From Snowella sp. (GTDB lineage: Bacteria; Cyanobacteriota; Cyanobacteriia; Cyanobacteriales; Microcystaceae): 15,796 nucleotides of DNA. Shown piece after piece: positions 210 through 15,431 of this stretch (the first letter of the stretch is position 1; the number at the start of each line of letters is the position of its first letter). The position numbers and the translations under genes were made by a program. A model generated the notes under the pieces. It saw only the letters and a program-made list of their open reading frames with translations, was not told the origin of the DNA and ran no database searches. The stretch spans positions 1 to 15,796 of the forward strand of contig QBMS01000102.1 in the NCBI GenBank assembly GCA_003249095.1, read 5' to 3'.

Positions 210-367
210 ACTCTCTCTCCTTTTTTTACCGATTTATTTATAGTATTATTACCCTTAACACCCCTGTAAAGTTATAACCATTACTTCCAAGCTTATATTT
301 GCTTCTTTGTTTCTCTAATCCTTTGCCCAGTAATCCTTTCTGCCTTTAATCAGGCTGAACCATTGCC
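1..367 (-). mobile_element. Partial IS copy (inner end plus transposase 5' part), running off the left window edge. The family is tentative: IS1/IS1595-like.
   Basis: Positions 3..367 are the exact reverse complement of 15432..15796 (checked block by block). The inner terminus reads GGCAATGGTTCAGCC..., i.e. the GGnnnTG type of end seen in IS1/IS1595-like elements. It has subterminal AAAGGATTA direct repeats and encodes a zinc-ribbon transposase N-terminus. Confidence 0.8.
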
Positions 368-902
368 TACGATTATCTTTATCAAAATTCCATTGACCAC
401 CAATAGGTTTTTGGCCATCCATTAATATTTGAAATCTTTTCCGTCCTTCTCGATAAAAATCTTCTAGTAGTAAACGTTTTTTATTTGTAGCCCATGCTTC
501 AAAATCTTCTTTTGACCAGAGGAAATGATTATTGGCAATCAATTCAATTTTACACGGTAATACTAGATTTTCAATGAGCTTCTGGAAAGGCAAATCAGTA
601 GGAGTCATTATCCATAACTGTGTAATTTGATGCTCTTCAATCCAAGCTAATAAGGGATCCTGAAAAACATCGGTGACGCAGTAATTTACGGGCCAACCTT
701 CAGTGCGTAATTCTTCGGCAAAATGACGCATGGCAGACCAGACTAAAACTAATTTTTGGGCATGGTAGCGTCTTTGACGAACATAATCTAAGGATTCAAT
801 AAAAATAACAGGCGTTTCAGTTTTATGTTCCTGAAAACGGGCAAGAGCCGCCTGTTTTTCCCATAGTTGATCGCCTAATATCCAAATACCATTACTCATC
901 AA
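315..902 (-). pseudogene. Truncated PhrB/FeS-BCP-type (6-4) photolyase-related gene. Only about 179 native N-terminal codons remain. The last 16 codons and the stop are read out of the IS end.
   Basis: The motifs WILGDQL, SAMRHFAEELR, FYREGRKRF and GGQWNFDKDNR match the N-terminal third of roughly 500-aa PhrB-like photolyases. Homology stops exactly at the IS boundary (367/368, inside an AGG codon). The tail QWFSLIKGRKDYWAKD is IS-derived. Confidence 0.8.
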
Positions 903-949
903 AAGTTAGCCCGTAATATTTTTTCGGCACAATCCGATCGCATCAAAAA

Positions 950-1741
950 CTACTCGATATTGATCACGGTTGGGTTGCCCGTTCCCGTAGAAGCCGAAAA
1001 AGAGGATTTGCGATAGGTGCTATAGAGGCGATCGCGCCAAGCAAAGAAAGGTTCATAGGTGCTGTTATCGGCGAGTCCTGGAATCCCCTTACCCTTAAGT
1101 TCGGACGGAATTGACAGATAATCCCCCGTAGGAAACTTCAAGGTCATACTCAAACCTGCCACTGCCAAATCGGCCAAAGTGGGTTCATCGGTGACAAGGT
1201 AGGGGCGATGTTGTAAAATTAACGATAGTGCCTCTAGGTCTTGCTTTAAACCTTGAATCGCATCTTTTACTTCATTTCCCCCAAAACCAACCCCAGAACC
1301 GAAAAAATCCAGTATTTCCGACGGAACTGCTCCAACCAACGTTTTCAGGAAATCAGGTGTATTGCTCGGTAAAACAGAGGTACGGAAATTCGGGTTCTGA
1401 TTTAAGGCTCCAATCAATGCCTTGCGTCCCTTCAAACCAATGGATTCATCGGCCCATTCTTCAATCAATAAACACTGGCCACGCAGGACTGGATCGGTGG
1501 GAATAATCGGTTTTTCGGGAAATTTACGGTCTAAATAAAAGGCAATGTCCGTTGAGTCGGTAATGACTGTCTCCCCATCTTTTAATACAGGAACCTTGGA
1601 TTGTCCTGACAAACGAAAAAGCTCGATTTGTCCCACGCCAGGGGTAACTTCAATTTTTTTGTAGTCTAATTCCTTGTAATCTAAGATCAAACGAACCTTT
1701 TCGGAATATTGAGACAATTCAAATTGATAAAGTTCTAACAT
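950..1741 (-). CDS. Glutathione S-transferase family protein.
   Basis: 263-aa ORF. The N-terminal thioredoxin-like GST fold signature is LYQFELSQYSEKVRLILDYKELDYKKIEV...SKVPVLKDGETVITDSTDIAFYL, followed by a helical C-terminal domain. Confidence 0.8.
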   Translation of the reverse strand: MLELYQFELSQYSEKVRLILDYKELDYKKIEVTPGVGQIELFRLSGQSKVPVLKDGETVITDSTDIAFYLDRKFPEKPIIPTDPVLRGQCLLIEEWADESIGLKGRKALIGALNQNPNFRTSVLPSNTPDFLKTLVGAVPSEILDFFGSGVGFGGNEVKDAIQGLKQDLEALSLILQHRPYLVTDEPTLADLAVAGLSMTLKFPTGDYLSIPSELKGKGIPGLADNSTYEPFFAWRDRLYSTYRKSSFSASTGTGNPTVINIE

Positions 1742-1915
1742 TTTAATTTTTAATGGGGAATAATCTTTCTTAGTACGTTGAAAAAATTAAGCGCGATTCT
1801 CTTAATAAAAGTTAATATAACATAAAAGCCTGATTTTGTTTTCGGGTATGCTACAACTCAAAATAGTCTACATAACCAACCCTAATTGTCGTACAGACTC
1901 CTCGGTGATTTTCCT

Positions 1916-2770
1916 ATGTCTCTAGCTTTTACCAAATATCATGGACTCGGCAATGACTTTATCCTAATTGATAATCGTTACTCGAATATCCCGCTCATTT
2001 CTCCTGAACAGGCTGTCAAAATGTGCGATCGCCACTTTGGAATTGGAGCAGACGGGGTGATTTTCGCCCTACCTGGTCAAGACGGAACCGATTACACTAT
2101 GCGGATTTTTAACTCCGACGGTTCTGAGCCTGAAATGTGTGGCAATGGTATTCGTTGTTTTGCGCGATTTATTGCAGATTTAGAAGGAGAAGTCAGTATC
2201 GGTAAGTCCTATCGTATTCACACCCTCGCTGGTGTTATTACGCCCCGATTAGAGGCAGAGGGGCAAGTCACCGTTGATATGGGCTTTCCCCAACTGTTGG
2301 CCGCAGATATTCCCACGACCTTGGCTGCTGGCGATAAAAAGGTGATTGATGTTCCCTTGGAAGTTGCGGGCCAAAGCTGGTCAGTGACCTGTGTGAGTAT
2401 GGGGAATCCCCACTGCATTAATTTTGTTGAAAATGTCGATCAAATTCCCTTAGAACACATTGGCCCCCAGTTTGAAAACCACCCAGCTTTTCCCAAAAAG
2501 ACCAATACGGAATTTATTCAAGCGATCGCGCCTGACTATCTCAAAATGCGAGTATGGGAAAGAGGAGCGGGCATAACCCTCGCTTGTGGGACAGGAGCCT
2601 GTGCCTCCGTCGTTGCTGGTGTTTTAACGGGAAAATCTGAGCGTCGTTGTACCGTAGAATTACCAGGGGGATGTTTACAGATTGAATGGTCTGAGATCGA
2701 TCAACGGATTTATATGACAGGGCCAGCCCAACGGGTCTTTATCGGTCACTATGAAGATATTTCTGTTTAA
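1916..2770 (+). CDS. dapF: Diaminopimelate epimerase.
   Basis: [15 protein letters not shown], the catalytic [11 protein letters not shown] and the second catalytic Cys in [11 protein letters not shown] prefer the ATG at 1916 ([15 protein letters not shown]) over the in-frame TTG at 1886 used by the ORF track. Confidence 0.95.
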
Positions 2771-3117
2771 ACTCAGTAAATTAAAATTGAACAGATTTAA
2801 ACATAAACCCCATCTAAATTATTAAAACTCGTAGCGAATGAAAATCGCCCCCTAAATTCCCTAATTCTGGGGGACTTTGAACTCAAAAAACTTGTAACCT
2901 CCCCCCAAAGTTGGGGAACAAGGAGGACAAAAAACTTTGGTTCTCAAATTGAACGGACTTTATTACTAGGAATGCTTTTTTTTCTCTGATAAAAATTGTC
3001 TTCTCGAAAAAAAATTGAACCTTAACCAAAGAATAATCTTTATTATACTCTCGATCTTGTATCTTCTTTGAAGAGTACCATTTCCCCCTGTCCACTTTTT
3101 TATAGGCCCAACAGATT

Positions 3118-4278
3118 ATGACTCAATCTAGCCTAAGTCCTGAAGTTCTCCTGCGCCAATCTCTTACCAATGAAGAAGAGGAAGAAGAAGAAGAAGATTA
3201 TTTTGACTATTTTTATGATGAACCAGGAAGTGAGCCAGGGACATTAAGTATTGAACCAGATGCCCCCCCTTCTAGAATTGTTTTGATTGATTATAGCCAA
3301 GATCATGCCGTGCGTAAATCAGATTTAACGCCCAATGCTTTACGTCCCTATTTAGGAACAAATACGGTTTCATGGATGGATATTCAAGGGTTAGGAAGTG
3401 AGGAAGTTTTAAAACAAGTCGGTGAAATTTTTAAGCTCCATCCCTTACTTTTAGAAGATATTGTGAACGTTCCCCAACGGGCAAAAATTGAAGATTATAA
3501 TGATCACATTATGCTCATTGCCCATCGTGTTCGTCCCAATCGCGAAGAAGATGGTTTTGAAAGTGAGCAGGTGAGTTTTGTCTTAGGAAAACGCTATTTA
3601 TTGACGTTTCAAGAAGGCGAATTAAGCGATTGTTTTGATCCCGTTCGCGATCGCATCCGTGCCAATCAGGGAAAGGTTTGTCAGGAAGGAGCCGATTATT
3701 TAGTATATTTACTTTTAGATATGCTAATTGATGAATACTTTCCGTTGTTAGAAGATTATGAAGAGAGAATTGAGGCTCTAGAGGACACCATTATTCGGAA
3801 TCCTAGTAGTCAGTTAATGGAAGAAATCTATAATATTCGTCGGGAATTATTGGCCCTGCGTCGTCTGATTTGGCCCCTGCGCCATGTGATGAATGTGTTA
3901 TTGAGAGATACCAATTCTTTGATCAGTAGTGACGCTCGTATTTATTTCCGAGATTGCTATGACCACATTATTCAAGTATTAGATATTATTGAAGCTTATC
4001 GAGAATTGGCTTCGAGTTTAATGGAGGTCTATATGACTTCGATGAGCAATAAAATGAACGAGGTGATGAAATTTTTAACCGTCATTTCCACTATTTTTAT
4101 TCCCCTGACTTTTATTGCGGGGGTTTACGGGATGAACTTTGAATATATGCCCGAATTAAAATCTCGTTGGGGTTACATTATCACCTGGGGCGTGATGCTT
4201 GCGATCGCGGGTGGCTCTCTGATTTTCTTTTGGCGTAGGGGGTGGTTACAGCCGTCCTATTCCATCAAAGATGATTAA
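3118..4278 (+). CDS. corA: CorA-family Mg2+/Co2+ transporter with an acidic N-terminal extension.
   Basis: YGMNFEYMPEL (GMN signature) followed by two C-terminal TM helices. Size is typical at 386 aa. There is an E8 run near the N-terminus. Confidence 0.95.
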   Translation: MTQSSLSPEVLLRQSLTNEEEEEEEEDYFDYFYDEPGSEPGTLSIEPDAPPSRIVLIDYSQDHAVRKSDLTPNALRPYLGTNTVSWMDIQGLGSEEVLKQVGEIFKLHPLLLEDIVNVPQRAKIEDYNDHIMLIAHRVRPNREEDGFESEQVSFVLGKRYLLTFQEGELSDCFDPVRDRIRANQGKVCQEGADYLVYLLLDMLIDEYFPLLEDYEERIEALEDTIIRNPSSQLMEEIYNIRRELLALRRLIWPLRHVMNVLLRDTNSLISSDARIYFRDCYDHIIQVLDIIEAYRELASSLMEVYMTSMSNKMNEVMKFLTVISTIFIPLTFIAGVYGMNFEYMPELKSRWGYIITWGVMLAIAGGSLIFFWRRGWLQPSYSIKDD

Positions 4279-4283
4279 TTGTT

Positions 4284-4760
4284 TTAATTAAAATCTCTAG
4301 AATTGAGGGGAATCATTGCCCAGGTAACATAGGTTCCAATAGGACTCCAAAGCAAATAGGGAATTAAAAATTTCCCCGCGATCGCTGACACAGGAAACAC
4401 ACAAATTGCTAAAGCTAAACCAATAAAAAAACCTGTTCCTCCAATAAAAGTTCCGATCTTTAAACTACGGAATTTACACATAACAGGGGTGTAGGCCATA
4501 ACAAAAATTTCTAAGACCAGATAACCGAGCATTAATGCCCAGGTTCGTCCTTCATGGGGAGCATCTTGCCATAACAGAGTCGCTGATATCGCACAGCAAA
4601 TAAAAATAGAAATCCAGATCCAAGGAATTGCCCATTCAAAAGTTAACCAATTGGGTCGGCGTAAGCGATTAAACCAACGAATATCCCTGGGAGAAAGCCG
4701 ATTGAGTAACCAAGCAACTACAAAAGCCACCGTACCAATAATTAACCAAGCAGGAACCAT
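4284..4760 (-). CDS. TspO/MBR-family (tryptophan-rich sensory protein-like) membrane protein.
   Basis: 158 aa with about 5 TM segments. WFNRLRRPNWLTFEWAIPWIWISIF resembles the TspO W-x-x-L-x-K-P-x-W motif region, and the C-terminal PYLLW...LN matches the TspO C-terminus. Confidence 0.65.
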   Translation of the reverse strand: MVPAWLIIGTVAFVVAWLLNRLSPRDIRWFNRLRRPNWLTFEWAIPWIWISIFICCAISATLLWQDAPHEGRTWALMLGYLVLEIFVMAYTPVMCKFRSLKIGTFIGGTGFFIGLALAICVFPVSAIAGKFLIPYLLWSPIGTYVTWAMIPLNSRDFN

Positions 4761-5008
4761 AGGATTTTAGAAATTGTATTCTTCACCTCAAATTATACTC
4801 ACTGATAGAGTCCAGGAACGGATTGGGGCTACGTCCGACGGTAAATCTAGCTGATTCCAGACGGGAATTGTGCCTTAACAACACAAGCAATCAGGGATTA
4901 AGATGTTAGGAAGCGTGTTGTTATCCTATTCAAAAGCGGGTTTCAATTGGGATTAAAGCGTTAATTGGTAGGAATTGACGGTAACATATTTTTGTTATTT
5001 ATGGTGCA

Positions 5009-5854
5009 ATGATGGTTAGCAATTTTCAGATAGATAATCCAGACGGTTTAGCAGATGAAGCTCCCAATTATACCGTTGAAAAAGCGATCGCGAATATCCA
5101 ACAAAAAGAAGATCCTAGTGCAAGATATTACGCCGCTTGGTGGATTGGTCGATTTCGGGTAACAGAAACGATCGCCATTGATGCCCTAATTGAAGCTTTA
5201 CAGGATGAAAGCGATCGCTCTCCCGATGGGGGTTATCCGTTACGACGAAATGCCGCTAAAGCCCTGGGGAAATTGGGGGAAAATAGAGCTGTACCTGCCC
5301 TCATTGAGGCCCTATGCTGTTCGGATTATTATGTACGCGAATCTGCGGCCCAAGCCCTGGAACAGTTGGGAGATACTAGGGCAATTCCTGCTTTATTGAA
5401 TTTACTGGATGGCGGGTTAGATGCCGCTCAACAAATGGCAGATAAACCCCATTTGAATCAACCCTATGAAGCGATTATTGAAGCTTTAGGAATCCTAGAA
5501 GCTGTTGAAGCGATTCCCCTCATTGAGCCATTTTTAGCGCATTTTACCGCCAAGGTGCAGTATGCCGCCGCTAGAGCTTTGTATCAACTGACCAGTAACT
5601 CGGCTTACGGCGATCGCCTAATTGATGCGCTCAAAGGCCCTGATCTCCAATTACGACGGTCGGCCATGATGGATCTCGGTGCAACGGGTTATTTAAAAGG
5701 TGCAAACGCGATCGCCCAAACCTACGCTGAAAACAGTTTGAAATTAATTGCCCTGAAAGATTTATTGGAATCCCATTTAAAAAAACAAGCCCAAGAAATG
5801 GTTTTATCTGAGGAGAGTATTCAAATTATGACTTTGATGGACGAATTACTGTAA
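5009..5854 (+). CDS. cpcE: CpcE-type HEAT-repeat protein (phycocyanobilin lyase subunit E family).
   Basis: ARYYAAWWIGRFR, DRSPDGGYPLRRNAAKALGKLG, YYVRESAAQALEQLGD, QLRRSAMMDLGATGYL, ENSLKLIALKDL and a C-terminal MDELL. These are characteristic of CpcE as I remember it. No cpcF follows it here. Confidence 0.7.
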   Translation: MMVSNFQIDNPDGLADEAPNYTVEKAIANIQQKEDPSARYYAAWWIGRFRVTETIAIDALIEALQDESDRSPDGGYPLRRNAAKALGKLGENRAVPALIEALCCSDYYVRESAAQALEQLGDTRAIPALLNLLDGGLDAAQQMADKPHLNQPYEAIIEALGILEAVEAIPLIEPFLAHFTAKVQYAAARALYQLTSNSAYGDRLIDALKGPDLQLRRSAMMDLGATGYLKGANAIAQTYAENSLKLIALKDLLESHLKKQAQEMVLSEESIQIMTLMDELL

Positions 5855-5909
5855 TGTATCCTACGCGCTTCTTTCCCTTATCTAGGTTTATTGACTTTCG
5901 GGTATGAGA

Positions 5910-6065
5910 TTAAGATAAACAAGAGCGATCAATGGGATCTGCCTTATCTCCTAATTTGACCACTGTGCCATTTAAGCGGACTCTACCCTGTAAAATTAAT
6001 TCTTCGGCATGACGACGGGAAGCCACTCCCCATTGCGATAAAATCTTTTGAATACGTTCGGACAT
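5910..6065 (-). pseudogene. Stub of an RsuA/RluB-type pseudouridine synthase: S4 RNA-binding N-terminus only, 51 codons.
   Basis: Minus-strand ATG at 6065..6063. Translation is [51 protein letters not shown]. This is the canonical S4 domain that opens pseudouridine synthases of about 240 aa or more. The catalytic domain is absent. It is too short (under 60 aa) to appear in the ORF track. Confidence 0.6.
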
Positions 6066-6311
6066 GAATTTTCAGACTCCATTTTTAATCAAAAAAAGAA
6101 AACATTGCCATTAAACGAGGAAATCATTTGTGGGGTTACAAATCGTCTTTTAGATCCCTTGGGCGTGATCAATGAATTCTGTTAATCTCCCCAACTTTTT
6201 ACTATACAAGAGTTTTGAATATTTTGTCAGATATACGTAGGTAAAATAATACTTTTAATCTATAAATAATTATTTTTAATCATCAGTTTCTCAAAAAAAG
6301 AGTAATTATTT

Positions 6312-6464
6312 ATGAAACTTTTTACCGCGATCGTTGAAAAGGATATAGATACGAATCTCTATGTCGGTTATGTACTTGGAGAAGCTTTAATGAGAGCGAT
6401 CGCAGAAGGTCTTGATGGTGAAAATGTTAGTCGAGAAGAAATTTTTACTGTATTATCTGAGTAA
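6312..6464 (+). pseudogene. HicB-like antitoxin N-terminal stub fused to an unrelated helical tail (50 codons).
   Basis: Translation is MKLFTAIVEKDIDTNLYVGYVLGEALMRAIAEGLDGENVSREEIFTVLSE*. The first ~22 aa resemble the start of cyanobacterial HicB-family antitoxins (..TAIVEKD.DT.LYVGYVPG..). The rest does not continue that fold. No hicA partner is visible. Confidence 0.35.
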
Positions 6465-6477
6465 TCCCTAAAAAACT

Positions 6478-6500
6478 GTAGGGACGTAAGGCTTACGCCC
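6478..6500. repeat. Solo GTAGGG-plus-hairpin repeat unit directly upstream of the STAND gene ribosome-binding site.
   Basis: GTAGGGACGTAAGGCTTACGCCC, with CGTAAG/CTTACG self-complementary. It has the same GTAGGG-plus-hairpin design as the two ends of the element at 8958..9061. Confidence 0.3.
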
Positions 6501-6522
6501 AAACCTAGCAAGGAGTTAGAGC

Positions 6523-6870
6523 ATGGAACCGTTGACGCTATTGGCTACAGGAGCCACGATTATTTTGACGGGAGCGTTGACCCGTTTGGGGGAGCTTTCT
6601 TTGGATGGTTCGGTTGAAAAACTGAAAAATTTAATTGCGGTGAAGTCTCCTGATACGTTGAAAAAGTTGCAATCTGCTAATCAAAATCCTGCTTTGTTAC
6701 CTGAAACGATTGAGGCAGTGGCGACTTTACTGGAAGATCCAGAAATGCAAAGAGTTGCGGAACAAGCAGTTAAGGAAAATGAATCTAATCCTTACGTTAT
6801 TAATATGATGAAAAATGTTGGGATTGTTAATCAAGGAACAATTAATAATCCGACTTTTAATTTCCACTGA
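6523..6870 (+). CDS. Hypothetical 115-aa protein. It is most likely the N-terminal module of the downstream STAND NTPase (same frame, separated by one TGA).
   Basis: Strong SD AAGGAG (6510..6515) lies 7 nt before the ATG at 6523. The start is hydrophobic and rich in small residues (LTLLATGATIILTGALTRLG), followed by helical segments and an Asn-rich linker (GIVNQGTINNPTFNFH). The stop TGA at 6868..6870 is in frame with 6943..8961. Confidence 0.6.
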   Translation: MEPLTLLATGATIILTGALTRLGELSLDGSVEKLKNLIAVKSPDTLKKLQSANQNPALLPETIEAVATLLEDPEMQRVAEQAVKENESNPYVINMMKNVGIVNQGTINNPTFNFH

Positions 6871-6942
6871 CTACAGCCGCCTGTTCAGGAGCAGGTTAAA
6901 CAAAACCTTCACAATTTACCGAATAGTGGTGTCGCGCAATTT

Positions 6943-8961
6943 GTGGGACGTGATGATGTTTTAGCGCAATTAGATCAGCAATTACAGCAAAATGATCGCG
7001 TTGCCATTTCCACTTTGACGGGGATGGGTGGCATTGGGAAGTCGGAGTTGGCGTTGCAGTATGCTTGGCAGGAATGGAATAAAAAAACTTATTTGGGGGG
7101 AATTGCCTGGTTAACGGTGGCGGATGGTGATCCTGGGTTAAGTCTTTTAAGTTTTGCTCAGTTGCATTTAGGGTTAACGTTACCGACGGAAGGAGAATTA
7201 AGCGATCGCGTTCGTTTTGTTTGGCAACATTGGTTTAAAAATGAACAGGATCAAGGGTTAATTATTTTTGATGATGTGCGAAATTATCAACAGATTAAAG
7301 CCTATTTACCGCCTCAAGCAGAAAAACGCTTTAAGGTCATTATTACAACCCGCAATAAAAATTTATCAGCAACGATTCAGACGTTACATTTAGAGCTTTT
7401 AGATCAGGATTCAGCCTTAGATTTATTGCGTTCCTATGTGACGGATGGACGTATTGATCAACAGTTAGAACAAGCAAAATTACTCTGTCGAGATCTGGGT
7501 TATTTGCCCTTAGCCTTGGAATTGGTAGCGCGATTATTAAGGCGACGGAAAAATTGGACAATTCAATCTATTCGAGAACGGTTAGCAGAAAAGGGATTAG
7601 CGGATCAAAGTTTACAAAAAAATCCGAAGTTTGATGCAGAAATGACGGCTAAAAATGGGGTTAAAGCGGCTTTTGATTTGAGTTGGGAAGCATTAGATAG
7701 CAATGCTCAACAGTTGGCCATGTATTTGAGCTTGTTTGCCCTCGCTCCTTTTTCTAAATTTTTAATTGATGCGTTACTTACTGAGCAAGATCCTGATGAC
7801 TTGGAGGAGTGGTTGACAGATAGTTTGGTTAATCTCAATTTAGTTAGCGATCTGGGAGATAATTGGTATGAATTGCATACGTTGATTCGGTATTATTTGC
7901 GGGAAAAGTTAGAGGAATCGCCGTTGAAAGAGGAAGCAAAACGCGCCTATGGTCGGGTGATGGTCAGTATTGCTCAAACGATTAAGCAAACTTTGACGTT
8001 GGAAGATATTGCTAATCTAGAGCCGTATATTGAGCATTTAAAAGTAGCGGCTGAGGAGTTTCATCAATGGTTAGAAGGAGAATATTTAACCTGGCCTTTT
8101 TACGGTTTAAGTGCATTTTATCGAGCGCAGGGACTTTATCAACAAGCGGTTCCTTATTATGAACGCTGTTTAACCCTGAGTGAGCAACGCTTCGGCAAAA
8201 ATCATCCTAAAGTGGCAACCAGTCTCAACAATCTGGCGGAACTTTATCGCGTTCAAGGGAAATACGCAGAAGCCGAACCTCTTATGGCGCGATCGCTGGC
8301 GATTAGGGAAAAGCAATTAGGAGAAAATCATCCTGATGTTGCCCAAAGTCTCAACAATCTGGCGGCTCTTTATGAGTCCCAAGGGAAATACGCAGAAGCC
8401 GAACCTCTCTATGGGCGATCGCTGGCGATTAGGGAAAAGCAATTAGGAGAAAATCATCCCCAAGTGGCAACCAGTCTCAACAATCTGGCGAGTCTTTATT
8501 ATGCCCAAGGGAAATACGCAGAAGCCGAACCTCTCTATGGGGGATCGCTGGCGATTAGGGAAAAGCAATTAGGAGAAAATCATCCTGACGTGGCAACCAG
8601 TCTCAACAATCTGGCGGAACTTTATCGCGTTCAAGGGAAATACGCAGAAGCCGAACCTCTCTATCGGCGATCGCTGGCGATTTGGGAAAAGCAATTAGGA
8701 GAAAATCATCCTCAAGTGGCAACCAGTCTCAACAATCTGGCGGCTCTTTATGACTCCCAAGGGAAATATGCAGAAGCCGAACCGCTTTATCAAAGAGCGA
8801 TTGCTATTTTCTTAGAAAAATTAGGCGAAAATCACCCCAACACTCAAACTGTAATGATGAATTATTTTCAAATGTTAGCCAAACTTCCCGACGACGAATT
8901 AAACCAACGCTTTGACCCCGAAACGGTGGAAATGTTGCATAACCTACGACAACAATTGTAG
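6943..8961 (+). CDS. STAND NTPase: NB-ARC (AP-ATPase) domain followed by a kinesin-light-chain-type TPR array.
   Basis: Walker A GMGGIGKS (7021..7044), Walker B LIIFDDV (7258..7278), IITTRN (7339..7356), GLPL-like GYLPLALEL (7498..7524) and an MHD-like ELHTLIRYYL. These are followed by at least 6 TPR units of 42 aa (GENHP.VA.SLNNLA.LY..QGKYAEAEPLY.RSLAIREKQL). The GTG at 6943 has no SD. The upstream in-frame peptide NLPNSGVAQFVGRDDVL is the usual pre-P-loop segment, so the true start is probably 6523. Confidence 0.9.
   Translation: MGRDDVLAQLDQQLQQNDRVAISTLTGMGGIGKSELALQYAWQEWNKKTYLGGIAWLTVADGDPGLSLLSFAQLHLGLTLPTEGELSDRVRFVWQHWFKNEQDQGLIIFDDVRNYQQIKAYLPPQAEKRFKVIITTRNKNLSATIQTLHLELLDQDSALDLLRSYVTDGRIDQQLEQAKLLCRDLGYLPLALELVARLLRRRKNWTIQSIRERLAEKGLADQSLQKNPKFDAEMTAKNGVKAAFDLSWEALDSNAQQLAMYLSLFALAPFSKFLIDALLTEQDPDDLEEWLTDSLVNLNLVSDLGDNWYELHTLIRYYLREKLEESPLKEEAKRAYGRVMVSIAQTIKQTLTLEDIANLEPYIEHLKVAAEEFHQWLEGEYLTWPFYGLSAFYRAQGLYQQAVPYYERCLTLSEQRFGKNHPKVATSLNNLAELYRVQGKYAEAEPLMARSLAIREKQLGENHPDVAQSLNNLAALYESQGKYAEAEPLYGRSLAIREKQLGENHPQVATSLNNLASLYYAQGKYAEAEPLYGGSLAIREKQLGENHPDVATSLNNLAELYRVQGKYAEAEPLYRRSLAIWEKQLGENHPQVATSLNNLAALYDSQGKYAEAEPLYQRAIAIFLEKLGENHPNTQTVMMNYFQMLAKLPDDELNQRFDPETVEMLHNLRQQL
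8200..8829 (+). repeat. Five tandem, near-identical 126-bp units (42-aa TPR units) inside the STAND gene.
   Basis: Units start at 8200, 8326, 8452, 8578 and 8704, each with AATCATCC. They share long identical blocks (GGGAAATACGCAGAAGCCGAACCTCT, GCTGGCGATTAGGGAAAAGCAATTAGGAGAA). A degenerate sixth unit follows from 8830 and a diverged unit precedes 8200. Confidence 0.9.
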
Positions 8962-9061
8962 GGGCTTGGTCTCCAAGTCCAATCATTTAAAGGTTGAGAA
9001 ACCCATAATTCAAGAATTTGTTAACCATTAAAGTTAAAGGATTTGGAAACCAAACCCCTAC
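8958..9061. mobile_element. MITE-like 104-bp element with 23-bp imperfect terminal inverted repeats.
   Basis: The left end is GTAGGGGCTTGGTCTCCAAGTCC (8958..8980). The reverse complement of the right end (9039..9061) is GTAGGGGTTTGGTTTCCAAATCC, matching at 20/23. Each end contains its own hairpin (CTTGG-TCT-CCAAG and TTTGG-AAA-CCAAA). Two of the three differences are compensatory. Confidence 0.5.
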
Positions 9062-9151
9062 TATTACGTCGATTTACATTATTTTAAAATTAATCAAGGC
9101 CACTTCTTTAGTGTAAATTATTGGTTTGGCTTCTCCCAACTTCACTATTTT

Positions 9152-9868
9152 ATGACCCAAAATCAGCCCAGTAAACTTATTAGCAAAATTCTTTCCCCCG
9201 CCCTACGGCTTTGGTTGCGATCGCAGGTCGAACACGCCGACCAATTAGACATCCAGATCGAAGGACAAGACCGCCAACTGTTGCGGGGTCATGTTCCCCA
9301 GGTTTATTTGACCAGTCAACGGGCGATTTACCAAGGACTCCAATTAGGCAAAGTTTTACTCAAGGGTGAAAATATCCGCGTCAATATTGGTCAGGTGATC
9401 AAAGGAAAACCCCTTGAACTGCTTGAACCGATTCAAGTCAGTGGAGAAATTCAGTTAGCCGAGACAGATTTACAAGCTTCCCTCACTTCCCAGATTTTAG
9501 CCAATGCCTTCACCGAATTACTGCTTGCCCTGCTGGAACTCAAAGGTGTTGCTAATGCCACCGACTTTTTAGCTCCTTACCAAATTCATTGGCACGCGAT
9601 CGCCTTGTATCCTAACGCTTTTGGCTTAAAAGGAACCCTTTCCCAGCAGAATGAAGAAAAACTTCTGCTAGAAATTCGGTCAAAATTAACCCTCCTCAAT
9701 CCCCAAACGCTCCATCTCCAGGACATTGAAATAACGGGATTTCCTGGACTAGGAGAAAACGAGACCAATAACTTTCCCGTCGATTTAGGCACTGACGTAG
9801 AAATTGAGACTCTCCAACTCAGTCAAGGAGAACTATCCTGCCTGGGACGGTTACTGATTCGCCCCTAA
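9152..9868 (+). CDS. DUF2993 (LmeA-like) family protein.
   Basis: 238-aa ORF. LRLWLRSQVEHADQLDIQIEGQDRQLLRGHVPQVYL...YQGLQLGKVLLKGENIRVNIGQVIKGKPL.LLEPI matches the conserved cyanobacterial DUF2993 pattern as I recall it. Confidence 0.6.
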   Translation: MTQNQPSKLISKILSPALRLWLRSQVEHADQLDIQIEGQDRQLLRGHVPQVYLTSQRAIYQGLQLGKVLLKGENIRVNIGQVIKGKPLELLEPIQVSGEIQLAETDLQASLTSQILANAFTELLLALLELKGVANATDFLAPYQIHWHAIALYPNAFGLKGTLSQQNEEKLLLEIRSKLTLLNPQTLHLQDIEITGFPGLGENETNNFPVDLGTDVEIETLQLSQGELSCLGRLLIRP

Positions 9869-9869
9869 T

Positions 9870-10598
9870 TTAAGAATCCGCAGGCACTTCGGGAGTGGTT
9901 TCGCTGGGAGCATCAACGCTAATGGCCGCTTGAGCCTTCTTTTCCCGTTTTTTCCGTTCCGCTTCCATTGCCTCATCCAAGACCTTGAGCAATTGATCTG
10001 CCTTATCCAGATTATTACGGTACAACTCCAGATCTTTTTGCAATTTCTCGCTCGACAAATTTAACGCCCCCGATAACTGGGCAAGGACTTGATTTCGTTT
10101 TTCCTCTTCCTTGAGTGCGTCAGGATCAACGGTATTGAGAATGGTATAGAGTCCGATCGCAAACAGACGACTATATTTAAAATTAGAATTCTGGTGGATA
10201 TTGACCAGCGTTTGCAGAAAATAGTTATCTCCTGCTGATTCTGGGGTTAAATTAGTCACTTTATCCATCAGATCAGACACCGAGATCGCCTGGGAAGAAG
10301 CCAGTACATCCTGAGCATTTTGGCGATATTGATGGGGATCAGCAGCAACGGAGCGACAAACTGCGTTAAAAATCGAGCCTTTATCTTCTTCAGGGCGATA
10401 TCCCTGCATAAACCGATCAAAGGAGGTAACAACCCCCAATGCAAAAATCGGATCATAGCGAAAATCCACGTTAACCGTGAATAAATGCATTTCAACCATT
10501 AATTCTTCCACAAATCGCCGATAAATCGAATTTATGGGACGATGATGATGGACATGAAACTCACGCTTGGTCTCGGAAACGGTACGAATTTTAGCCAC
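9870..10598 (-). CDS. thf1: Thylakoid formation protein Thf1 / Psb29.
   Basis: RTVSETKREF..HRPINSIYRRFVEELMVEMHL..VNVDFRYDPIFALGVVTSFDRFMQGYRPEEDK, with a coiled, charged C-terminus. I prefer the in-frame GTG at 10598 (MAKIRTVSETKR, 242 aa, the usual Thf1 length) over the GTG at 10652 in the ORF track. Confidence 0.85.
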   Translation of the reverse strand: MAKIRTVSETKREFHVHHHRPINSIYRRFVEELMVEMHLFTVNVDFRYDPIFALGVVTSFDRFMQGYRPEEDKGSIFNAVCRSVAADPHQYRQNAQDVLASSQAISVSDLMDKVTNLTPESAGDNYFLQTLVNIHQNSNFKYSRLFAIGLYTILNTVDPDALKEEEKRNQVLAQLSGALNLSSEKLQKDLELYRNNLDKADQLLKVLDEAMEAERKKREKKAQAAISVDAPSETTPEVPADS

Positions 10599-10736
10599 AA
10601 ATCTAACTTTACAAATAGCAATATAATTCTCATTCTCCCTTGTAAAGTCCACTTTGCCAAGCCTAAAAACCGAAAGGCAATTCAGGGCAGAAACGGCGGG
10701 CAGTTGTTTTTTTGTGTTAAAGTGGTTGGATATAAG

Positions 10737-10808
10737 GGGTTACTAGCTCAACGGTAGAGCACTGGACTCTTAATCCATTGGTTCAGGGTTCGAGTCCCTG
10801 GTGACCCA
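10737..10808 (+). tRNA. tRNA-Lys, anticodon CUU (no encoded CCA).
   Basis: Manual cloverleaf fold. Acceptor stem GGGTTAC/GTGACCC with one U-G pair. D arm GCTC-AACGGTA-GAGC. Anticodon arm CTGGA-CTCTTAA-TCCAT (one mismatch), with anticodon CTT at 10769..10771. Variable loop TGGTT. T arm CAGGG-TTCGAGT-CCCTG. Discriminator A. The overall sequence is close to bacterial tRNA-Lys. Confidence 0.9.
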
Positions 10809-10865
10809 TCTTTTAACGCTATATCTAGTCCAGTAATGGGCTATCTTTAGAAATGCTTTTCTATT

Positions 10866-11297
10866 TTAACTGGGGAAATATTCTGAATCTAGAATTTGTT
10901 CTTCAGTGAATGGGCAGTCCGTCGGGAAGGCTTCTGGGGTTAGTTTGGTTTCGGTTACTGCGTCTCGTTTGGCTTTTTTGTAAATTTCTTCGAGCTTTGA
11001 GGTTAGGTAGGGTCTAAGACTTGGGCTGTCTGCTAGGACTAACTCTATCTGGTCTCTTTGTTCGTTGATAGTTTTTATCCAACTGTTAGTTTTCTTTTGG
11101 GGTTGGTATTGGCATTTGAGCAGGTGCGTGATTAACACCTTCAAACGGTTAAAAATTTCTCTTTTGTCGCTACGGGTCATGGCTTCAATCTCTTCGATGA
11201 GGTTGTCCAGGTCAAGGGTTTGGATGTCACCACTTTTCAGGGCAGTAATGGTCTGCTCTATCCATAGATTGAAGTCGGTGCTGTAAAGGTTTGTCAT
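10866..11297 (-). CDS. DUF29 family protein.
   Basis: LYSTDFNLWIEQT...LDLDNLIEEIEAMTRSDKREIFNRLKVLITHLLKCQYQP...SWIKTINEQR..IE.VL.DSPSLRPYL...CPFTEEQILD is the classic cyanobacterial DUF29 pattern. Confidence 0.85.
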   Translation of the reverse strand: MTNLYSTDFNLWIEQTITALKSGDIQTLDLDNLIEEIEAMTRSDKREIFNRLKVLITHLLKCQYQPQKKTNSWIKTINEQRDQIELVLADSPSLRPYLTSKLEEIYKKAKRDAVTETKLTPEAFPTDCPFTEEQILDSEYFPS

Positions 11298-11323
11298 TGG
11301 TTTCCTCTATTTATCCTATCGGG

Positions 11324-11605
11324 CTAGGAGCTTGGGAAAAAAGCAATCTTACCCAGTAAGCCTAACAGTCCCCCAACGAGGGCAAACAGGATTCCAATCA
11401 ACCAACCTGTTAAGCCGTTGACCCTATTTTCGATAATGTCCATCCGTTTATCTAGCCCTGTTACTTTCTGGTCAATTTGTCCGACTGTGACTTTGAGATC
11501 ATTCAAGTCACCGTCTATTTTGTCCAGGCGTTGCTCTAATCGATCAAAGCGTTGATCAAGTTTGGTTAATACGTCTCTTAAATCGGTTTCTATCGTTGTG
11601 GTCAT
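11324..11605 (-). CDS. Small tail-anchored coiled-coil membrane protein (93 aa) with XhlA-like architecture.
   Basis: The N-terminal ~65 aa carry repetitive LD/RL heptad/hendecad-like repeats (LTKLDQRFDRLEQRLDKIDGDLNDLKVTVGQIDQKVTGLDKRMDIIENRV). A single C-terminal TM follows (GWLIGILFALVGGLLGLLGKIAFF). SD AGAGG lies 7 nt upstream and overlaps the stop of the upstream gene. Confidence 0.6.
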   Translation of the reverse strand: MTTTIETDLRDVLTKLDQRFDRLEQRLDKIDGDLNDLKVTVGQIDQKVTGLDKRMDIIENRVNGLTGWLIGILFALVGGLLGLLGKIAFFPSS

Positions 11606-11615
11606 TGGCTTACCT

Positions 11616-11849
11616 CTATCTGGCGAGGACTGCGGGAATGATTATGGCTAGGTTTGCTGTGGCTAACAGTCCGAAAGCTATGTTGACTACCTGCTGTGAG
11701 GCTTTTTGGTAGGCATCTAGTTTGCTGTCGTAAACATCTATTTTGGAAATTAATTTTTCTAGGGTGTTTTCAATTTGGTTTAACCTATCGCCTTGGACGT
11801 TCAGGCTTGAGTCAATACGGTCAAGGCGTTGATTATCGCCGTCTGTCAT
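11616..11849 (-). CDS. Small tail-anchored coiled-coil membrane protein (77 aa); first gene of the operon.
   Basis: The N-terminal coiled-coil-like segment is [40 protein letters not shown] and the C-terminal TM is [23 protein letters not shown]. The SD/start cassette is the same as in the two downstream genes. Confidence 0.55.
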
Positions 11850-11922
11850 TGGTTTACCTCTGTTTCTTCGGGGTCGGGCAATGCCAATATTAAATCACAA
11901 TACCTTCGCTAATATATCCGAG

Positions 11923-11939
11923 AGAGTATTATCTACTCT
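11923..11939. promoter_or_regulatory. Perfect 6-5-6 palindrome AGAGTA-TTATC-TACTCT upstream of the minus-strand three-gene operon; possible operator.
   Basis: Seen directly in the sequence. It lies about 75-90 nt upstream of the ATG at 11849 on the transcribed side. No binding protein is known. Confidence 0.2.
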
Positions 11940-12232
11940 AACGGTAAACTCCCTTTTAAGCGAGGTTTGGCAAAAACAGTAATTCTTAAAAATCTTTTTA
12001 GGGTTTTCCGAAAAGAATTTTTCATGTATTCCTTGCAGTATAAGGGTTTGAGTTTTTGTGCTACTTTTCAAACTAAAGACTTATGTATAGGGACTTGTAC
12101 GAGTTTTGCCAAATTTTTGTGGGCTTTTATTTTGGCTAAGTTATTGAAAAACAAGAAAAAATTTTAACCAAAAAGCTAAAACCCTTGTATAGTAAATATC
12201 ATAGAGTTTTTGGAGACATAGACCCTTACTCG

Positions 12233-12264
12233 ATTGGTTCAAGGTTCAAATCCCTGGTAACCCA
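12233..12264 (+). repeat. Degenerate direct copy of the 3'-terminal 32 nt of tRNA-Lys (att-like remnant).
   Basis: ATTGGTTCAAGGTTCAAATCCCTGGTAACCCA versus 10777..10808 ATTGGTTCAGGGTTCGAGTCCCTGGTGACCCA. Identity is 28/32, and all four differences are G in the tRNA versus A in the copy. The sequence 5' of 12233 shows no tRNA similarity. Confidence 0.6.
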
Positions 12265-12611
12265 TTCCCCTTTTTTTACTGTAAATTCAATAATGTTAAG
12301 TACCGCTATTTACAGGTTGTCGTCGCAATTCAACACCTTATTGTCGTTTCTGGTATGGAATAATTATTAACAAATTAAGGGTCATTTGTTTTGTATTGCT
12401 GGATTAAGCACCTATTTTTCTTTTCAATCCTTTTTAGATTAGACTTCTTCCAAAATACTTTCCCTTGCTCCCGAAATCTCTCTTTTAAAGGGGTGAGGCT
12501 TGATTCAATCGTCGTCGTGTATAAAGTCTTCAATTACGCCCAAAGGATCGTTAGAATTACGGCAAGGGCATATTTACCAAGAAGTTTCATTATTAGTCTA
12601 GGAAAATCATC

Positions 12612-14861
12612 ATGGATAATCTCATCCTGCAATTACGGGGAATGAGTTGCGCTTCCTGTGCTTCCACCGTCGAAAAAGTGATTCAAGCGGTTCCTGGTGT
12701 GATTGAGTGCCAGGTTAACTTTGGAGCGGAACAAGCCACTGTTCAATATAATCCCCAACAAACGGGACTAGAACAGATTCAATCAGCAGTCGCCAAGGCG
12801 GGTTATCAGGCATCCGTTCTTCAGGAAATTGGTGAAGAAGATGAAGAAAAGACTTTTCGGCAAGCAGAATTAAGGGATCTAAAACGTAAAATTTGGGTGG
12901 GTGGCATCATTAGTGTTCTCTTGATGTCGGCTATGATTCCAGGCATTTTTGGCGTAGATTTGCCCTTGATTTCTGTTGGGTTAGGGAATCCCTGGTTGCA
13001 ATTAATTTTAACGACTCCTGTGATGTTTTGGTGTGGACGCTCCTTTTTTATCGGCGGAGGTCAAGCTCTTAAACGTCATACTGCAACGATGGATACCTTA
13101 ATCGCCTTGGGAACAGGTGTTGCCTATCTTTATTCCTTATTTGTCACTCTGTTTCCCCATTTTTTTGCGACGGAAGGTGTAATGCCCCATGTTTATTTTG
13201 AAATAGCGGCTACGGTCATAACCCTTATTTTGTTAGGAAGATTATTTGAAACTATTGCTAAGGGTGAAACCTCGGAAGCTATCCGTAAATTAATCGGTTT
13301 GGGGGCAAAAACGGCGCGAGTCATTCGTAATAATCAGGAAGTTGATATTGCGATCGCCGAAGTGGTTTTAGGCGACATTGTTTTAGTGCGACCTGGGGAA
13401 AAGGTTCCCGTCGATGGAGAAATTATCGAAGGATCTTCCACGATTGATGAAGCAATGGTGACGGGAGAAAGTGTTCCTGTTAAAAAGCAAACGGGGGATG
13501 AGGTGATTGGTGCAACGATTAATCAGACAGGAAGTTTTAAATTTCGAGCGACGAGAGTAGGGAAAGACACGGTTTTAGCCCAAATTGTTAACATGGTTCA
13601 ACAAGCCCAGGGTTCTAAAGCTCCGATTCAGAAATTGGCGGATCAAGTGACTGCTTGGTTTGTGCCTGGGGTCATTGCGATCGCGATTTTAACTTTTATT
13701 ATGTGGTTTAACGTCATGGGTAATCTTACCCTAGCGATGATTACCACCGTAGGAGTTTTGATTATTGCCTGTCCCTGCGCGTTAGGCTTAGCAACACCTA
13801 CATCTATTTTGGTCGGAACGGGAAAAGGAGCAGAAAACGGTATTTTAATTAAAGGAGCCGATAGTTTAGAACTTGCCCATCAAATAAAAACCATCGTTTT
13901 GGATAAGACGGGAACCCTCACCCAGGGCAAACCGACGGTAACGGATTTTGTGACAATCAATGGAATTGCCGAGAATAACGAACTGGATTTGCTCAGACTC
14001 GCGGCTTCCTTAGAAAAAAATTCGGAACATCCCCTAGCAGAAGCGGTAGTCAGATACGCCCAATCTCAAAAGGTGAATTTTGCAGACGTTCAAGAATTTA
14101 AGGCGATCGCGGGCAGTGGGGTACAGGGAATCGTGGAAGGAAAAAGGGTGCAAATCGGGACTCAACGTTGGCTAAAGGAATTAGCCATTCCTACCCAAAA
14201 ACTCGAAGATTATCAACAAACCTGGGAAAATACGAAAAAAACGGTGGTCTGGATCGCGATCGATGGTCAAATTCAAGGGATTATGGGGATTGCGGATGCC
14301 CTTAAACCCACTTCTGTTGCAACCGTCAAGACTTTAAAGAAAATGGGTTTGGAGGTGGTGATGCTCACGGGAGACAACCAAGCCACCGCCGAAGCGATCG
14401 CCCTCGAAGTGGGAATTGTCCGTGTTTTAGCCCAAGTCCGTCCTGAACAAAAAGCCGCTAAAATCCAAGCTTTACAAGCGGAAGGAAAAATTGTCGCGAT
14501 GGTCGGGGATGGAATCAATGATGCGCCCGCCCTAGCCCAGGCCGATGTGGGGATTGCCATTGGCACAGGAACCGATGTGGCGATCGCGGCTTCGGATATT
14601 ACCCTAATTTCGGGAGATTTGCAGGGCATTGTGACTGCCATCCAACTCAGTCGCGCCACTATGCAAAATATCCGTCAAAATCTCTTCTTTGCCTATATCT
14701 ATAATGTGGCGGGAATTCCTATTGCGGCGGGGGTTTTATTTCCCATTTTTGGTTGGTTACTGAGTCCGATTATTGCAGGGGGTGCAATGGCCTGTAGCTC
14801 TATTTCGGTGGTAACCAATGCGTTGCGTCTGCGGAAATTTCAGCCGAAAGTTATCATTTAA
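12612..14861 (+). CDS. Copper-translocating P1B-type ATPase (PacS/CopA-like).
   Basis: N-terminal HMA domain with GMSCASCA and [17 protein letters not shown] motif ([13 protein letters not shown]), DKTGTLT phosphorylation site, SEHPLA (HP motif) and [11 protein letters not shown] hinge. Confidence 0.95.
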
Positions 14862-14872
14862 GGAGTGAATTG

Positions 14873-15379: not shown

Positions 15380-15431
15380 AATTGGTTATACGCGATCGCC
15401 TCTAAAATTTATTGTCAACACCGCAATAACT

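Follow-up and report, generated by a model that had tools for sequence, protein, structure and literature searches.

A conserved in-frame UGA, a putative read-through site, between a small Bell-like protein and an NLR-type sensor in cyanobacteria

A single UGA stop codon separates a small, putatively membrane-attacking protein, consisting of a Bell-like domain and a candidate amyloid-signalling motif, from the NLR-type immune sensor encoded immediately downstream. This stop is conserved in frame across many cyanobacteria, and hence it is most likely a programmed read-through site that would yield both proteins from one reading frame, rather than a dead gene or a sequencing error. The read-through itself is inferred from comparative data, and we consider it more likely than not.

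Structure of the locus

We analyzed a 15,796-nt stretch of Snowella sp. DNA (assembly GCA_003249095.1, contig QBMS01000102.1, positions 1 to 15,796 of the forward strand), further referred to as the window. All features described below are on the forward strand. The first ORF (6523..6870) starts with ATG at 6523, preceded by the Shine-Dalgarno sequence AAGGAG (6510..6515) with a 7-nt spacer, and ends with CAC TGA C, the TGA occupying 6868-6870 and the +4 C being at 6871. The following 24 codons (6871..6942) are translated to LQPPVQEQVKQNLHNLPNSGVAQF without a stop and run in frame into VGRDDVL. The linker contains no canonical start codon, and its second half is the conserved pre-NB-ARC segment NxHNLPNSGVxxF. 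The first canonical start after the stop is GTG at 6943..6945, the valine of FVGR, which has no Shine-Dalgarno sequence. The in-frame ORF continues for 696 codons to TAG at 8959..8961 and is intact. It encodes an NB-ARC NTPase domain (6955..7593; PF00931, E 1.4e-19) with intact Walker A and B motifs, the Walker A motif GMGGIGKS being at 7021-7044, and a TPR sensor array (8026..8850; TPR_12, E 3e-104, and TPR_10), which includes 4.7 tandem copies of a 126-nt unit at 8198-8790.

The two in-frame ORFs, the TGA with its context, the stop-free linker, and the two starts had been noted in a preliminary description of the locus, and each of its statements about the sequence was confirmed. Its interpretation was supported only in part. 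Of the three options it offered, a sequencing error and a recent inactivation are rejected by the data below, while leaky read-through is the best supported one, although not demonstrated. The claim that the ancestral gene was one 812-codon ORF is not supported, as the stop is as old as the sampled family. The nature of the N-terminal module, which provides a functional rationale for read-through, had been missed.

Conservation of the in-frame TGA

For a single locus, the observed pattern is not improbable by chance. We estimate its probability at about 0.07, that is, 1/3 for the shared frame times about 0.2 for 24 stop-free codons at 40% GC. What takes it beyond chance is conservation. At least 14 distinct loci in five or more genera, from Microcystis, Snowella, Dolichospermum, Crocosphaera, a Caenarcaniphilales MAG, and metagenomes (45-96% identity), keep the in-frame TGA and a stop-free linker, while their flanking synonymous sites are near saturation; a metagenome scan added only two loci. 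The linker is 24 codons long, except for one locus (L037; the L numbers denote loci of our comparison) with 25 codons, a 3-nt indel that preserves the frame. The +4 base is always C or A, never U or G. One of these loci, L013, is the syntenic orthologue, with 92% nucleotide identity over window positions 5933-9746, and represents an independent assembly of the same locus. All loci share ancestry, and therefore the frame and the stop identity are partly inherited rather than independently evolved.

To test whether the stop has ever been replaced by a sense codon, we searched for fused relatives with the 115-aa module, with an exhaustive profile against 1.84 billion representatives, and with the conceptual read-through product. 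No real fusion was found. All 92 close relatives of the module are stand-alone proteins of 63-152 aa, and all 45 remote ones, found in the profile search, are small stand-alone proteins as well; none has a sense codon at this position. The only apparent fusion, the protein P0199 with W at the junction, is a genetic code 4 gene call over a real TGA, and it contains a second in-frame TGA. Genetic code reassignment is also rejected, as TGA is a normal stop in the related loci, where gyrA, RNase III, and 7 of 41 long ORFs end in it. At the same time, the stop studied here is the only TGA among 15 ORFs of the window.

Orthologues with an independent Shine-Dalgarno sequence and start for the ATPase would have contradicted read-through, and so we looked for them. 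The orthologues keep the stop, but most lack any independent start. Of 15 loci, 11 have no ATG, GTG, or TTG in the linker. The valine codon of FVGR is GTG in seven loci including the window, GTT in five, GTC in two, and GTA in one. In L001, the next start is the methionine inside the P-loop, and in L001, L015, L019, and L021 the first canonical start lies inside or beyond the P-loop. The exceptions are L038 and L039, with ATG immediately after the TGA, L020 with ATG at linker codon 8, and L028 with GTG at codon 21; hence, independent initiation is possible in some lineages.

The NB-ARC domain downstream of the stop is under purifying selection, with dN/dS of 0.08-0.30 at dS at or near saturation between clades, and ORFs of 696, 760, and 1068 codons remain open after the stop. 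However, many downstream NLR copies are truncated or disrupted (L001, L013, L016, L020, L032, L033-36), and a set of alternative Microcystis loci have lost NB-ARC altogether. Therefore, some loci keep only the small protein.

The small protein

The small protein comprises 115 aa and starts with MEPLT. Its residues 1-94 (6523..6804) form a predicted alpha-helical domain, with a hydrophobic helix 1 at residues 3-22 and six helices in the AF2 model (pLDDT 64, pTM 0.53). These features, including an acidic residue at position 2-3, match the published description of Bell, or "MEPIS"-type, domains, given for proteins of about 120-140 aa with a helical domain of about 100 aa. The assignment rests on such descriptive features only. 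Pfam and PADLOC searches yielded nothing for this module, a profile search against PDB sequences produced only chance-level hits, none below E 0.02, and Foldseek against the PDB found nothing below E 1; these searches were made without a Bell reference profile, and homology between Bell subfamilies is reported to be "exceedingly low".

The remaining residues (6805..6867) form the N/Q/G/V/I-rich motif MMKNVGIVNQGTINNPTFNFH, a candidate amyloid-signalling (BASS-like) motif which ends right at the stop. It is disordered in the AF2 model (pLDDT below 50 for aa 102-115), is hypervariable in the alignment of homologues, and behaves as a swappable cassette, being exchanged between the window and the syntenic orthologue L013. 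Motif cassettes and downstream modules are shuffled around the TGA and the linker in a 2x2 pattern, so that the TGA plus linker is a conserved junction.

Classical relatives from the same Bell family (L030/31, L005) have a separate NLR gene with its own ATG and its own N-terminal motif copy matching the Bell C-terminus. By contrast, in the TGA-type loci the NLR has no motif of its own, and the stop lies exactly at the motif-linker junction; in the window, only 24 linker codons precede FVGR. The motifs preceding the TGA in L013/L015 and L028 match N-terminal motifs of classical NLRs (scores 57 and 49, respectively, against a null maximum of 42). The motif of the window itself matches NLR N-terminal motifs only marginally, and no NLR with its exact motif type was found among the 105 closest NLRs.

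Sequence downstream of the stop

The linker is more conserved than the flanking coding sequence, with pS of 0.37 compared to 0.67-0.70 in the flanks, indicating extra constraint at the nucleotide level. A candidate 6-bp hairpin (6879..6896; GCCUGU, loop UCAGGA, GCAGGU) starts 8 nt after the UGA. In the alignment, 92.9% of cells are paired compared to 83.2% in shuffles (0 of 500), with compensatory changes and three pair types (UA, CG, and GC) at one position; however, the hairpin is small (about -7 kcal/mol), overlaps conserved codons, and has single-sequence z-scores of only -0.6 to -2.0. It is absent from classical NLR linkers. A second stem (AGGUU...AACCU) or a pseudoknot downstream of the hairpin was no better than shuffles, and no Rfam family, SECIS included, matched the junction. 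The hairpin loop carries an SD-like AGGAG, and an SD-like GGAG/GAGG/AAGG is conserved 13-20 nt after the stop, but no start codon lies 5-9 nt after it. The only tRNA gene in the window is tRNA-Lys(CTT), so within the window we found no suppressor or selenocysteine tRNA.

The nucleotide context agrees with published data. UGA is the leakiest stop, +4C and +4A raise read-through, and cyanobacteria share the pattern of species with more RF1 than RF2 (PMC5289835). In addition, 3' structures with 5-9 nt spacers stimulate recoding (PMC5009743). Stop-hopping, considered from the same source, is not supported, as no matching take-off and landing codons flank the TGA across the loci.

Proposed mechanism

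We suggest that the locus is a Bell/amyloid-motif-NLR cell-death signalling module encoded as one reading frame interrupted by a conserved, leaky UGA. In this view, most ribosomes would terminate at UGA-C and produce the 115-aa effector, that is, a Bell-like membrane-targeting helical domain with a C-terminal amyloid-forming motif. A minority would decode UGA with a near-cognate tRNA, probably tRNA-Trp, and continue through the linker into NB-ARC and TPR, yielding an 812-aa protein whose NLR part is preceded by the same motif. The small hairpin may raise the read-through rate. When the TPR/NB-ARC sensor is triggered and oligomerises, its clustered motifs would nucleate the amyloid fold, which would be templated onto the excess free effector, releasing helix 1 of the Bell domain to damage the membrane. 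One motif copy would thus serve both partners, and the sensor:effector ratio would be fixed by the read-through rate. What our analysis establishes is the conserved in-frame TGA and its context, the absence of a conserved start, purifying selection on the NLR, the location of the motif at the stop, the existence of classical two-copy relatives, and the cassette shuffling. That read-through occurs, the identity of the inserted amino acid, amyloid formation and its role in transmitting activation from the NLR to the effector, membrane killing, and any role of the hairpin are inferred.

Alternative explanations

The main rival, which we consider possible but unlikely, is that of two separate cistrons, the ribosome terminating at UGA and the NLR being translated on its own by termination-reinitiation or non-canonical initiation within the linker, or, in the window, at GTG 6943. 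This would give a motif-less NLR that cooperates with the small protein in some other way. The start codons in L038/L039, L020, and L028, the GTG at FVGR in seven loci, and the conserved SD-like element are consistent with it, and Bell and NLR genes in classical pairs are often tightly coupled or overlapping (Dyrka et al., 2020). However, no start codon is conserved. The first codon after the stop is CTA, CCA, AAG, ATA, CTG, or ATG, and the valine codon is not GTG in 8 of 15 loci. Moreover, re-initiation explains neither why the stop is always TGA with +4 C or A, nor why the frame is kept through a 3-nt indel, and the NLR would lack the motif that classical relatives carry.

A still less likely explanation is an ancient split with a relic NLR, when only the 115-aa protein is functional and is triggered in trans by another NLR with a matching motif, while the downstream ORF is no longer expressed and is decaying, or is kept open by gene conversion from paralogues. 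The truncated or rearranged NLR ORFs (302 aa in L013, 252 in L016, and 161 in L020; L032; L033-36 with a second TGA and a mutated P-loop), the Microcystis loci without NB-ARC, and motifs of the same types on N-termini of independent NLRs agree with this scenario. On the other hand, it is at odds with the purifying selection on NB-ARC, the long ORFs remaining open after the stop, the conservation of the linker, the intact Walker motifs and TPRs of the window copy, and the lack of an NLR with the exact motif type of the window among the closest NLRs.

A recent nonsense mutation or a sequencing or assembly error, although it would look like a single stop in an otherwise continuous 812-codon frame, is refuted by the same TGA in the syntenic orthologue and in at least 13 other diverged loci from independent assemblies, and by the absence of relatives with a sense codon. 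Selenocysteine insertion directed by the hairpin, whose loop contains GG, is very unlikely on present evidence, given the lack of an Rfam SECIS match, the hairpin length of only 6 bp, the absence of Cys at the equivalent junction in classical relatives, whereas selenoproteins normally have Cys homologues, and the position in a disordered linker with no plausible redox role.

Comparison with known systems

The closest systems are the Bell-domain/BASS amyloid-signalling gene pairs with NLRs in multicellular bacteria (Dyrka et al., 2020, bioRxiv 10.1101/2020.01.06.895854), Bab/Agp in E. coli (Ibarlosa et al., 2024, bioRxiv 10.1101/2024.11.07.622273), and fungal HET-S/NWD2. The locus resembles them in having a small protein with a helical domain of about 100 aa, an MEP-type N-terminus, a hydrophobic helix 1, and a short C-terminal N/Q/G/V/I-rich motif, followed immediately by a collinear NB-ARC and TPR NLR. 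Moreover, Microcystis and Crocosphaera are among the lineages where paired BASS motifs were reported. What differs is that the NLR has no motif and no start codon of its own, and that the single motif copy ends at a conserved in-frame UGA opening directly into the NLR. The published screen required a motif on both proteins and so would not have picked up these loci. Our literature searches for read-through in Bell, BASS, or NLR systems found nothing, and the papers we read do not mention stops or read-through.

The second parallel is programmed in-frame read-through that sets a fixed ratio of a short and an extended product, as in MuLV Gag/Gag-Pol (PMC5009743). In phage Qbeta, the coat and A1 proteins are produced in this way via UGA. 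Here, too, a putatively leaky stop lies between a short product that would be abundant and an extended one that would be rare, the downstream ORF is in frame without its own initiation signal, and a candidate 3' RNA structure is found at an 8-nt spacer; many effectors per nucleating sensor would parallel many Gag per Gag-Pol. However, this is a chromosomal gene of cyanobacteria rather than a viral one, and the stimulator, if real, is a 6-bp hairpin rather than a pseudoknot. Finally, the read-through product would have exactly the domain order of all-in-one NLRs with an N-terminal Bell/HeLo-type death domain fused to NOD and repeats (Dyrka et al., 2020; the Avast2 "MEPIS" N-terminus, Ibarlosa et al., 2024). 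The latter are single uninterrupted ORFs and need no amyloid motif, whereas here a stop and a motif lie between the domains, and the free effector would be the main product.

Implications

A more speculative possibility, which we regard as unlikely but not excluded, is that the UGA is not just a ratio-setting device but a part of the sensing logic. The amount of the fusion would depend on RF2-mediated termination, and anything perturbing termination or tRNA pools, such as phage takeover of translation, RF2 depletion, tRNA cleavage or modification changes, or stress, would raise the level of the nucleating sensor and lower the threshold for amyloid-triggered cell death. In addition, as a single cassette would encode both the sensor-side and the effector-side amyloid element, swapping one cassette, as seen between the window and L013, would create a new, automatically self-matched and mutually insulated signalling specificity, solving the co-evolution problem that two-gene amyloid pairs face.

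Gene callers currently start these NLRs at a methionine inside the P-loop or call them with genetic code 4. This class is therefore invisible to motif-pair screens and probably under-counted. Programmed stop-codon read-through is well established in viruses and eukaryotes, but very few cases are known in bacterial chromosomal genes. A conserved, context-optimised UGA linking a death effector to its immune sensor would be a clear cellular example. It would also add a third architecture to NLR amyloid signalling, beside two-gene pairs and all-in-one fusions, in which one gene makes both partners from a single motif copy at a fixed ratio.

The locus and the interrupted reading frame

The window is cyanobacterial chromosomal DNA. 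It encodes Thf1, PBS-lyase HEAT repeats, CorA, DapF and a P-type ATPase, and its closest relatives are Microcystis. ORF 6523..6870 is preceded by an AAGGAG Shine-Dalgarno (SD) sequence 7 nt upstream and ends in CAC-TGA-C, with the TGA at 6868-6870. The next 24 codons (6871-6942, LQPPVQEQVKQNLHNLPNSGVAQF) contain neither a stop nor an ATG, GTG or TTG, and the first canonical start is GTG 6943. The frame stays open for 696 codons up to the TAG at 8961 and encodes NB-ARC (Walker A GMGGIGKS at 7021-7044) and a TPR_12/TPR_10 array. The observation made in the preliminary description, a single in-frame TGA between the N-terminal module and the ATPase, is accurate. For one locus alone, however, we estimate the chance probability of such a pattern at roughly 0.07, so that the conclusion rests on comparison with other loci.

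The TPR array contains, at 8198-8790, 4.7 tandem copies of a 126-nt (42-aa) unit with 87% matches and no indels. Such high internal repeat conservation is of the kind discussed for NLR sensor domains that diversify by repeat recombination. Upstream of the locus, a 51-aa ORF on the opposite strand (5910-6065, minus strand) has a clear hit to an S4 RNA-binding domain (PF01479, E 2.9e-13).

A 50-aa ORF just upstream of the small gene (window 6312-6464, plus strand) ends in ...AEGLDGENVSREEIFTVLSE and is homologous (69% over 26 aa) to the RelB-like antitoxin ORF that sits between the small Bell-like gene and the NLR gene in locus L005. Other loci with separate Bell-like and NLR genes have HicAB inserted at that spot, and protein P0089 is a chimera of the Bell-like N-terminus with this antitoxin-like sequence. 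The regions concerned, besides that of the window, are L005 4514-4663, L030 2906-3341 and L004 4405-4665. Small toxin-antitoxin cassettes seem to insert repeatedly into these loci. Between the antitoxin-like ORF and the Bell-like gene lies an inverted repeat (window 6478-6500, GGGACGTAAGGCTTACGCCC, core CGTAAG-G-CTTACG), which may be a terminator or the end of a small mobile cassette. Among the 40 loci, an exact copy was found only in L013, the syntenic orthologue, while a similar sequence follows the HicB-like gene in L004, as read from its translation.

Conservation of the stop codon and of the junction

To determine whether the stop is recent, we searched for relatives of the 115-aa product. 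This yielded 92 homologues at 53-94% identity, all of them stand-alone proteins of 63-152 aa. A profile search through all 1.84 billion representative proteins yielded 45 hits, and all true matches are 49-193 aa long. One protein, P0199 (312 aa), appeared to be a Bell-NB-ARC fusion with W at the junction. However, its four contigs (L033-L036) carry TGA at this position, the gene had been called with a TGA=Trp code (genetic code 4), and the copy has a second in-frame TGA and a damaged P-loop. Hence, the stop is old and was not found as a sense codon in any relative. At the same time, TGA is an ordinary stop in these genomes, as it ends gyrA in Snowella, RNase III in the genome of locus L001, and 7 of 41 long ORFs. 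In the window, though, it is used only by this gene among 15 ORFs.

We then examined about 30 loci. At least 14 distinct sequences have an in-frame TGA followed by a stop-free linker and NB-ARC: the window; its syntenic orthologue L013 (92% nucleotide identity over 5933-9746); L015, L016 and L028; L019 and L038/39 (Dolichospermum type); L001 and L026; L020, from a Caenarcaniphilales MAG; L021, from Crocosphaera; L033-36; L037; and L040. Their Bell-like domains are 45-96% identical to that of the window. The linker comprises 24 codons in all loci but L037, which has 25, an indel of exactly 3 nt. The base following the stop is always C or A. In 11 of 15 loci there is no canonical start in the linker, the exceptions being L038/39 (ATG directly after TGA), L020 (ATG at codon 8) and L028 (GTG at codon 21). 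The valine codon of FVGR, proposed in the preliminary description as the only possible downstream start, is GTG in 7 loci, GTT in 5, GTC in 2 and GTA in 1.

In L001, the gene caller could only start the NLR at the methionine inside GMGGIGK. Many database NB-ARC proteins from Microcystis and relatives (P0184, P0156-P0158, P0190, P0218, P0225 and P0227) are likewise annotated as starting at the methionine inside the Walker A motif (MGGIGKTE...). Together with P0199, these look like annotation artefacts of further TGA-type loci.

Selection on the downstream NLR

Across 28 pairs of loci, the first 225 NB-ARC codons yield dN/dS of 0.08-0.30, with synonymous sites at or near saturation (pS 0.45-0.96). 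After the stop, ORFs of 696 (window), 760 (L021) and 1068 (L015) codons remain open. A neutral relic could not look like this. Still, some copies are broken (L013, L016, L020, L032, L033-36), and hence individual loci do decay. In L001 (4349-5880), the NLR frame after the TGA ends after 372 codons and the TPR part is a separate 126-aa call (5500-5880), suggesting a split or decaying NLR in that MAG, or an assembly error. L032 (830-2269) is a deletion derivative, in which the Bell-motif-TGA junction is followed in frame directly by LKQLQESERIAISTLTGM, the segment just before the P-loop, and then by an unrelated ORF of about 345 aa with no Pfam hit; a BrnT/BrnA toxin-antitoxin pair lies nearby.

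Features of the small protein

The small protein begins with MEPLT and has a hydrophobic helix at residues 3-22. It is predicted to form a six-helix bundle (pLDDT 64), with the last 14-17 residues disordered. The C-terminus is an N/Q/G/V/I-rich stretch that is hypervariable between homologues (NVGIVNQGTINNPTFNF, EKILNFANRDINIEEQNITF, NVGFVVQEGGKVEGVTQNFY, NKQITVSQSGIGNSQNNTFNL, and others). This matches the published description of Bell-domain proteins with bacterial amyloid-signalling sequences (BASS), which are short proteins of about 120-140 aa with a helical domain of about 100 aa, an acidic residue at position 2-3 and a "MEPIS"-type N-terminus. They end in a motif of about 25 aa, are followed by a collinear NLR whose N-terminus carries the same motif, and were reported in Microcystis and Crocosphaera, among others. 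However, we were not able to show sequence or fold homology to a reference Bell domain, and the name Bell is used here on the basis of these descriptive features.

Comparison with classical gene pairs

Within the same Bell family, some loci are textbook pairs. In L030/L031, the Bell protein ends in ...ITVSQSGIGNSQNNSFNL, and, after an inserted HicAB module, the NLR starts at a normal ATG with a good SD, its sequence beginning with MEIKIGQDGSGNTQTNIFNV-REQKKHQPNSHNLPNSGVAQFVGR. In L005-7, the Bell C-terminus (EQTGVTGLKVEGKAMIKIKQTIN) matches the NLR N-terminus (NQTGIKDTTIGDNAQISIEQKI). The motifs preceding the TGA in L013/L015 and L028 match the N-terminal motif of independent classical NLRs, P0143/4, with scores of 57 and 49 against a shuffled-motif maximum of 42. 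The motif of the window itself matches NLR N-termini only marginally (39 against a 95th percentile of 35).

By contrast, in the TGA-type loci the NLR frame has no motif of its own, and the stop sits exactly where the motif and the pre-NB-ARC linker meet. Read-through would therefore recreate the motif-linker-NLPNSG-FVGR arrangement of classical NLRs, with the Bell domain attached in front.

The TGA and the linker as a junction cassette

The window and its orthologue L013 differ by a clean swap of the motif, which lies between CCTTACGTTATTAAT and TGAC(T/C)ACAGCCGCCTGT. All four combinations of two motif types with two downstream modules, NB-ARC and an alternative ("alt") 97-aa extension, occur in Microcystis. 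The alt loci (L008, L009, L011, L012, L017, L018, L024 and L025; for example, L012 3501-5142) keep the Bell-motif-TGA junction and the first 13 linker codons (PQPPVGEQVKQNP), and then continue in frame for about 85 aa of sequence with no Pfam hit instead of NB-ARC. A separate 339-aa TPR-only protein with its own ATG follows, overlapping the end of that frame by about 20 nt, and its C-terminus resembles that of the window NLR. These loci could represent either a functional variant without NB-ARC or a deletion derivative.

The linker is more conserved at synonymous sites (pS 0.37) than the coding sequence on either side (0.67-0.70). A 6-bp hairpin begins 8 nt after the stop, at window 6879-6884 and 6891-6896. 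Across 14 sequences, it is paired in 92.9% of cells, against 83.2% in shuffles (0 of 500 shuffles reach this value), and pair 21-32 takes the forms U-A, C-G and G-C. Two classical NLR linkers lack the hairpin. As it is short, overlaps conserved codons and is individually unremarkable, we treat it as a candidate stimulator only. A second stem was tested and rejected, and no Rfam family matches the junction.

Possible mechanism

The interpretation offered in the preliminary description, a nonsense pseudogene, a sequencing error or leaky read-through, is partly supported, as only the last of these options agrees well with the comparative data. The best-supported reading is programmed UGA read-through, in which termination would yield the abundant Bell-motif effector and occasional near-cognate decoding would yield the Bell-motif-NB-ARC-TPR protein. 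The published data support the context: UGA is the leakiest stop, +4C raises read-through, +4A favours tRNA-Trp misreading, and cyanobacteria group with species that have more RF1 than RF2 (PMC5289835). Moreover, 3' structures at 5-9 nt spacers stimulate recoding, and MuLV uses in-frame read-through for Gag/Gag-Pol (PMC5009743). What the sequences themselves demonstrate is the conservation of the stop, its context and the frame, the lack of a conserved start, and the selection on the NLR; read-through itself is inferred from this comparison, no experiment yet showing the long protein, and so are the stimulatory role of the hairpin, amyloid formation and membrane attack.

The main alternative, which we consider possible but less likely, is termination-reinitiation or non-canonical initiation. 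It is favoured by the ATG after the stop in L038/39, by scattered starts elsewhere, and by the SD-like GGAG in the hairpin loop. However, it does not explain the exclusive use of TGA with +4 C/A, the non-start codons CTA, CCA and AAG after the stop, the preserved frame, or an NLR without a motif. A relic NLR, with the small protein activated in trans, is unlikely, as it conflicts with the selection data. A fresh pseudogene or sequencing error, as well as selenocysteine, are effectively excluded.

Both Bell/BASS-NLR signalling and stop-codon read-through are known, whereas their combination is not described in the papers that we could search and read. The published BASS screen required a motif on both proteins and would have missed these loci. 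The arrangement is conserved, mechanistically suggestive and directly testable. The subsequent steps are inferred by analogy with HET-S/NWD2 and Bab/Agp: oligomerisation of the sensor would nucleate the amyloid fold, which would be templated onto the free effector, and helix 1 would be released to attack the membrane. In this view, a fixed, low sensor:effector ratio and a single self-matched motif copy would be the obvious advantages.
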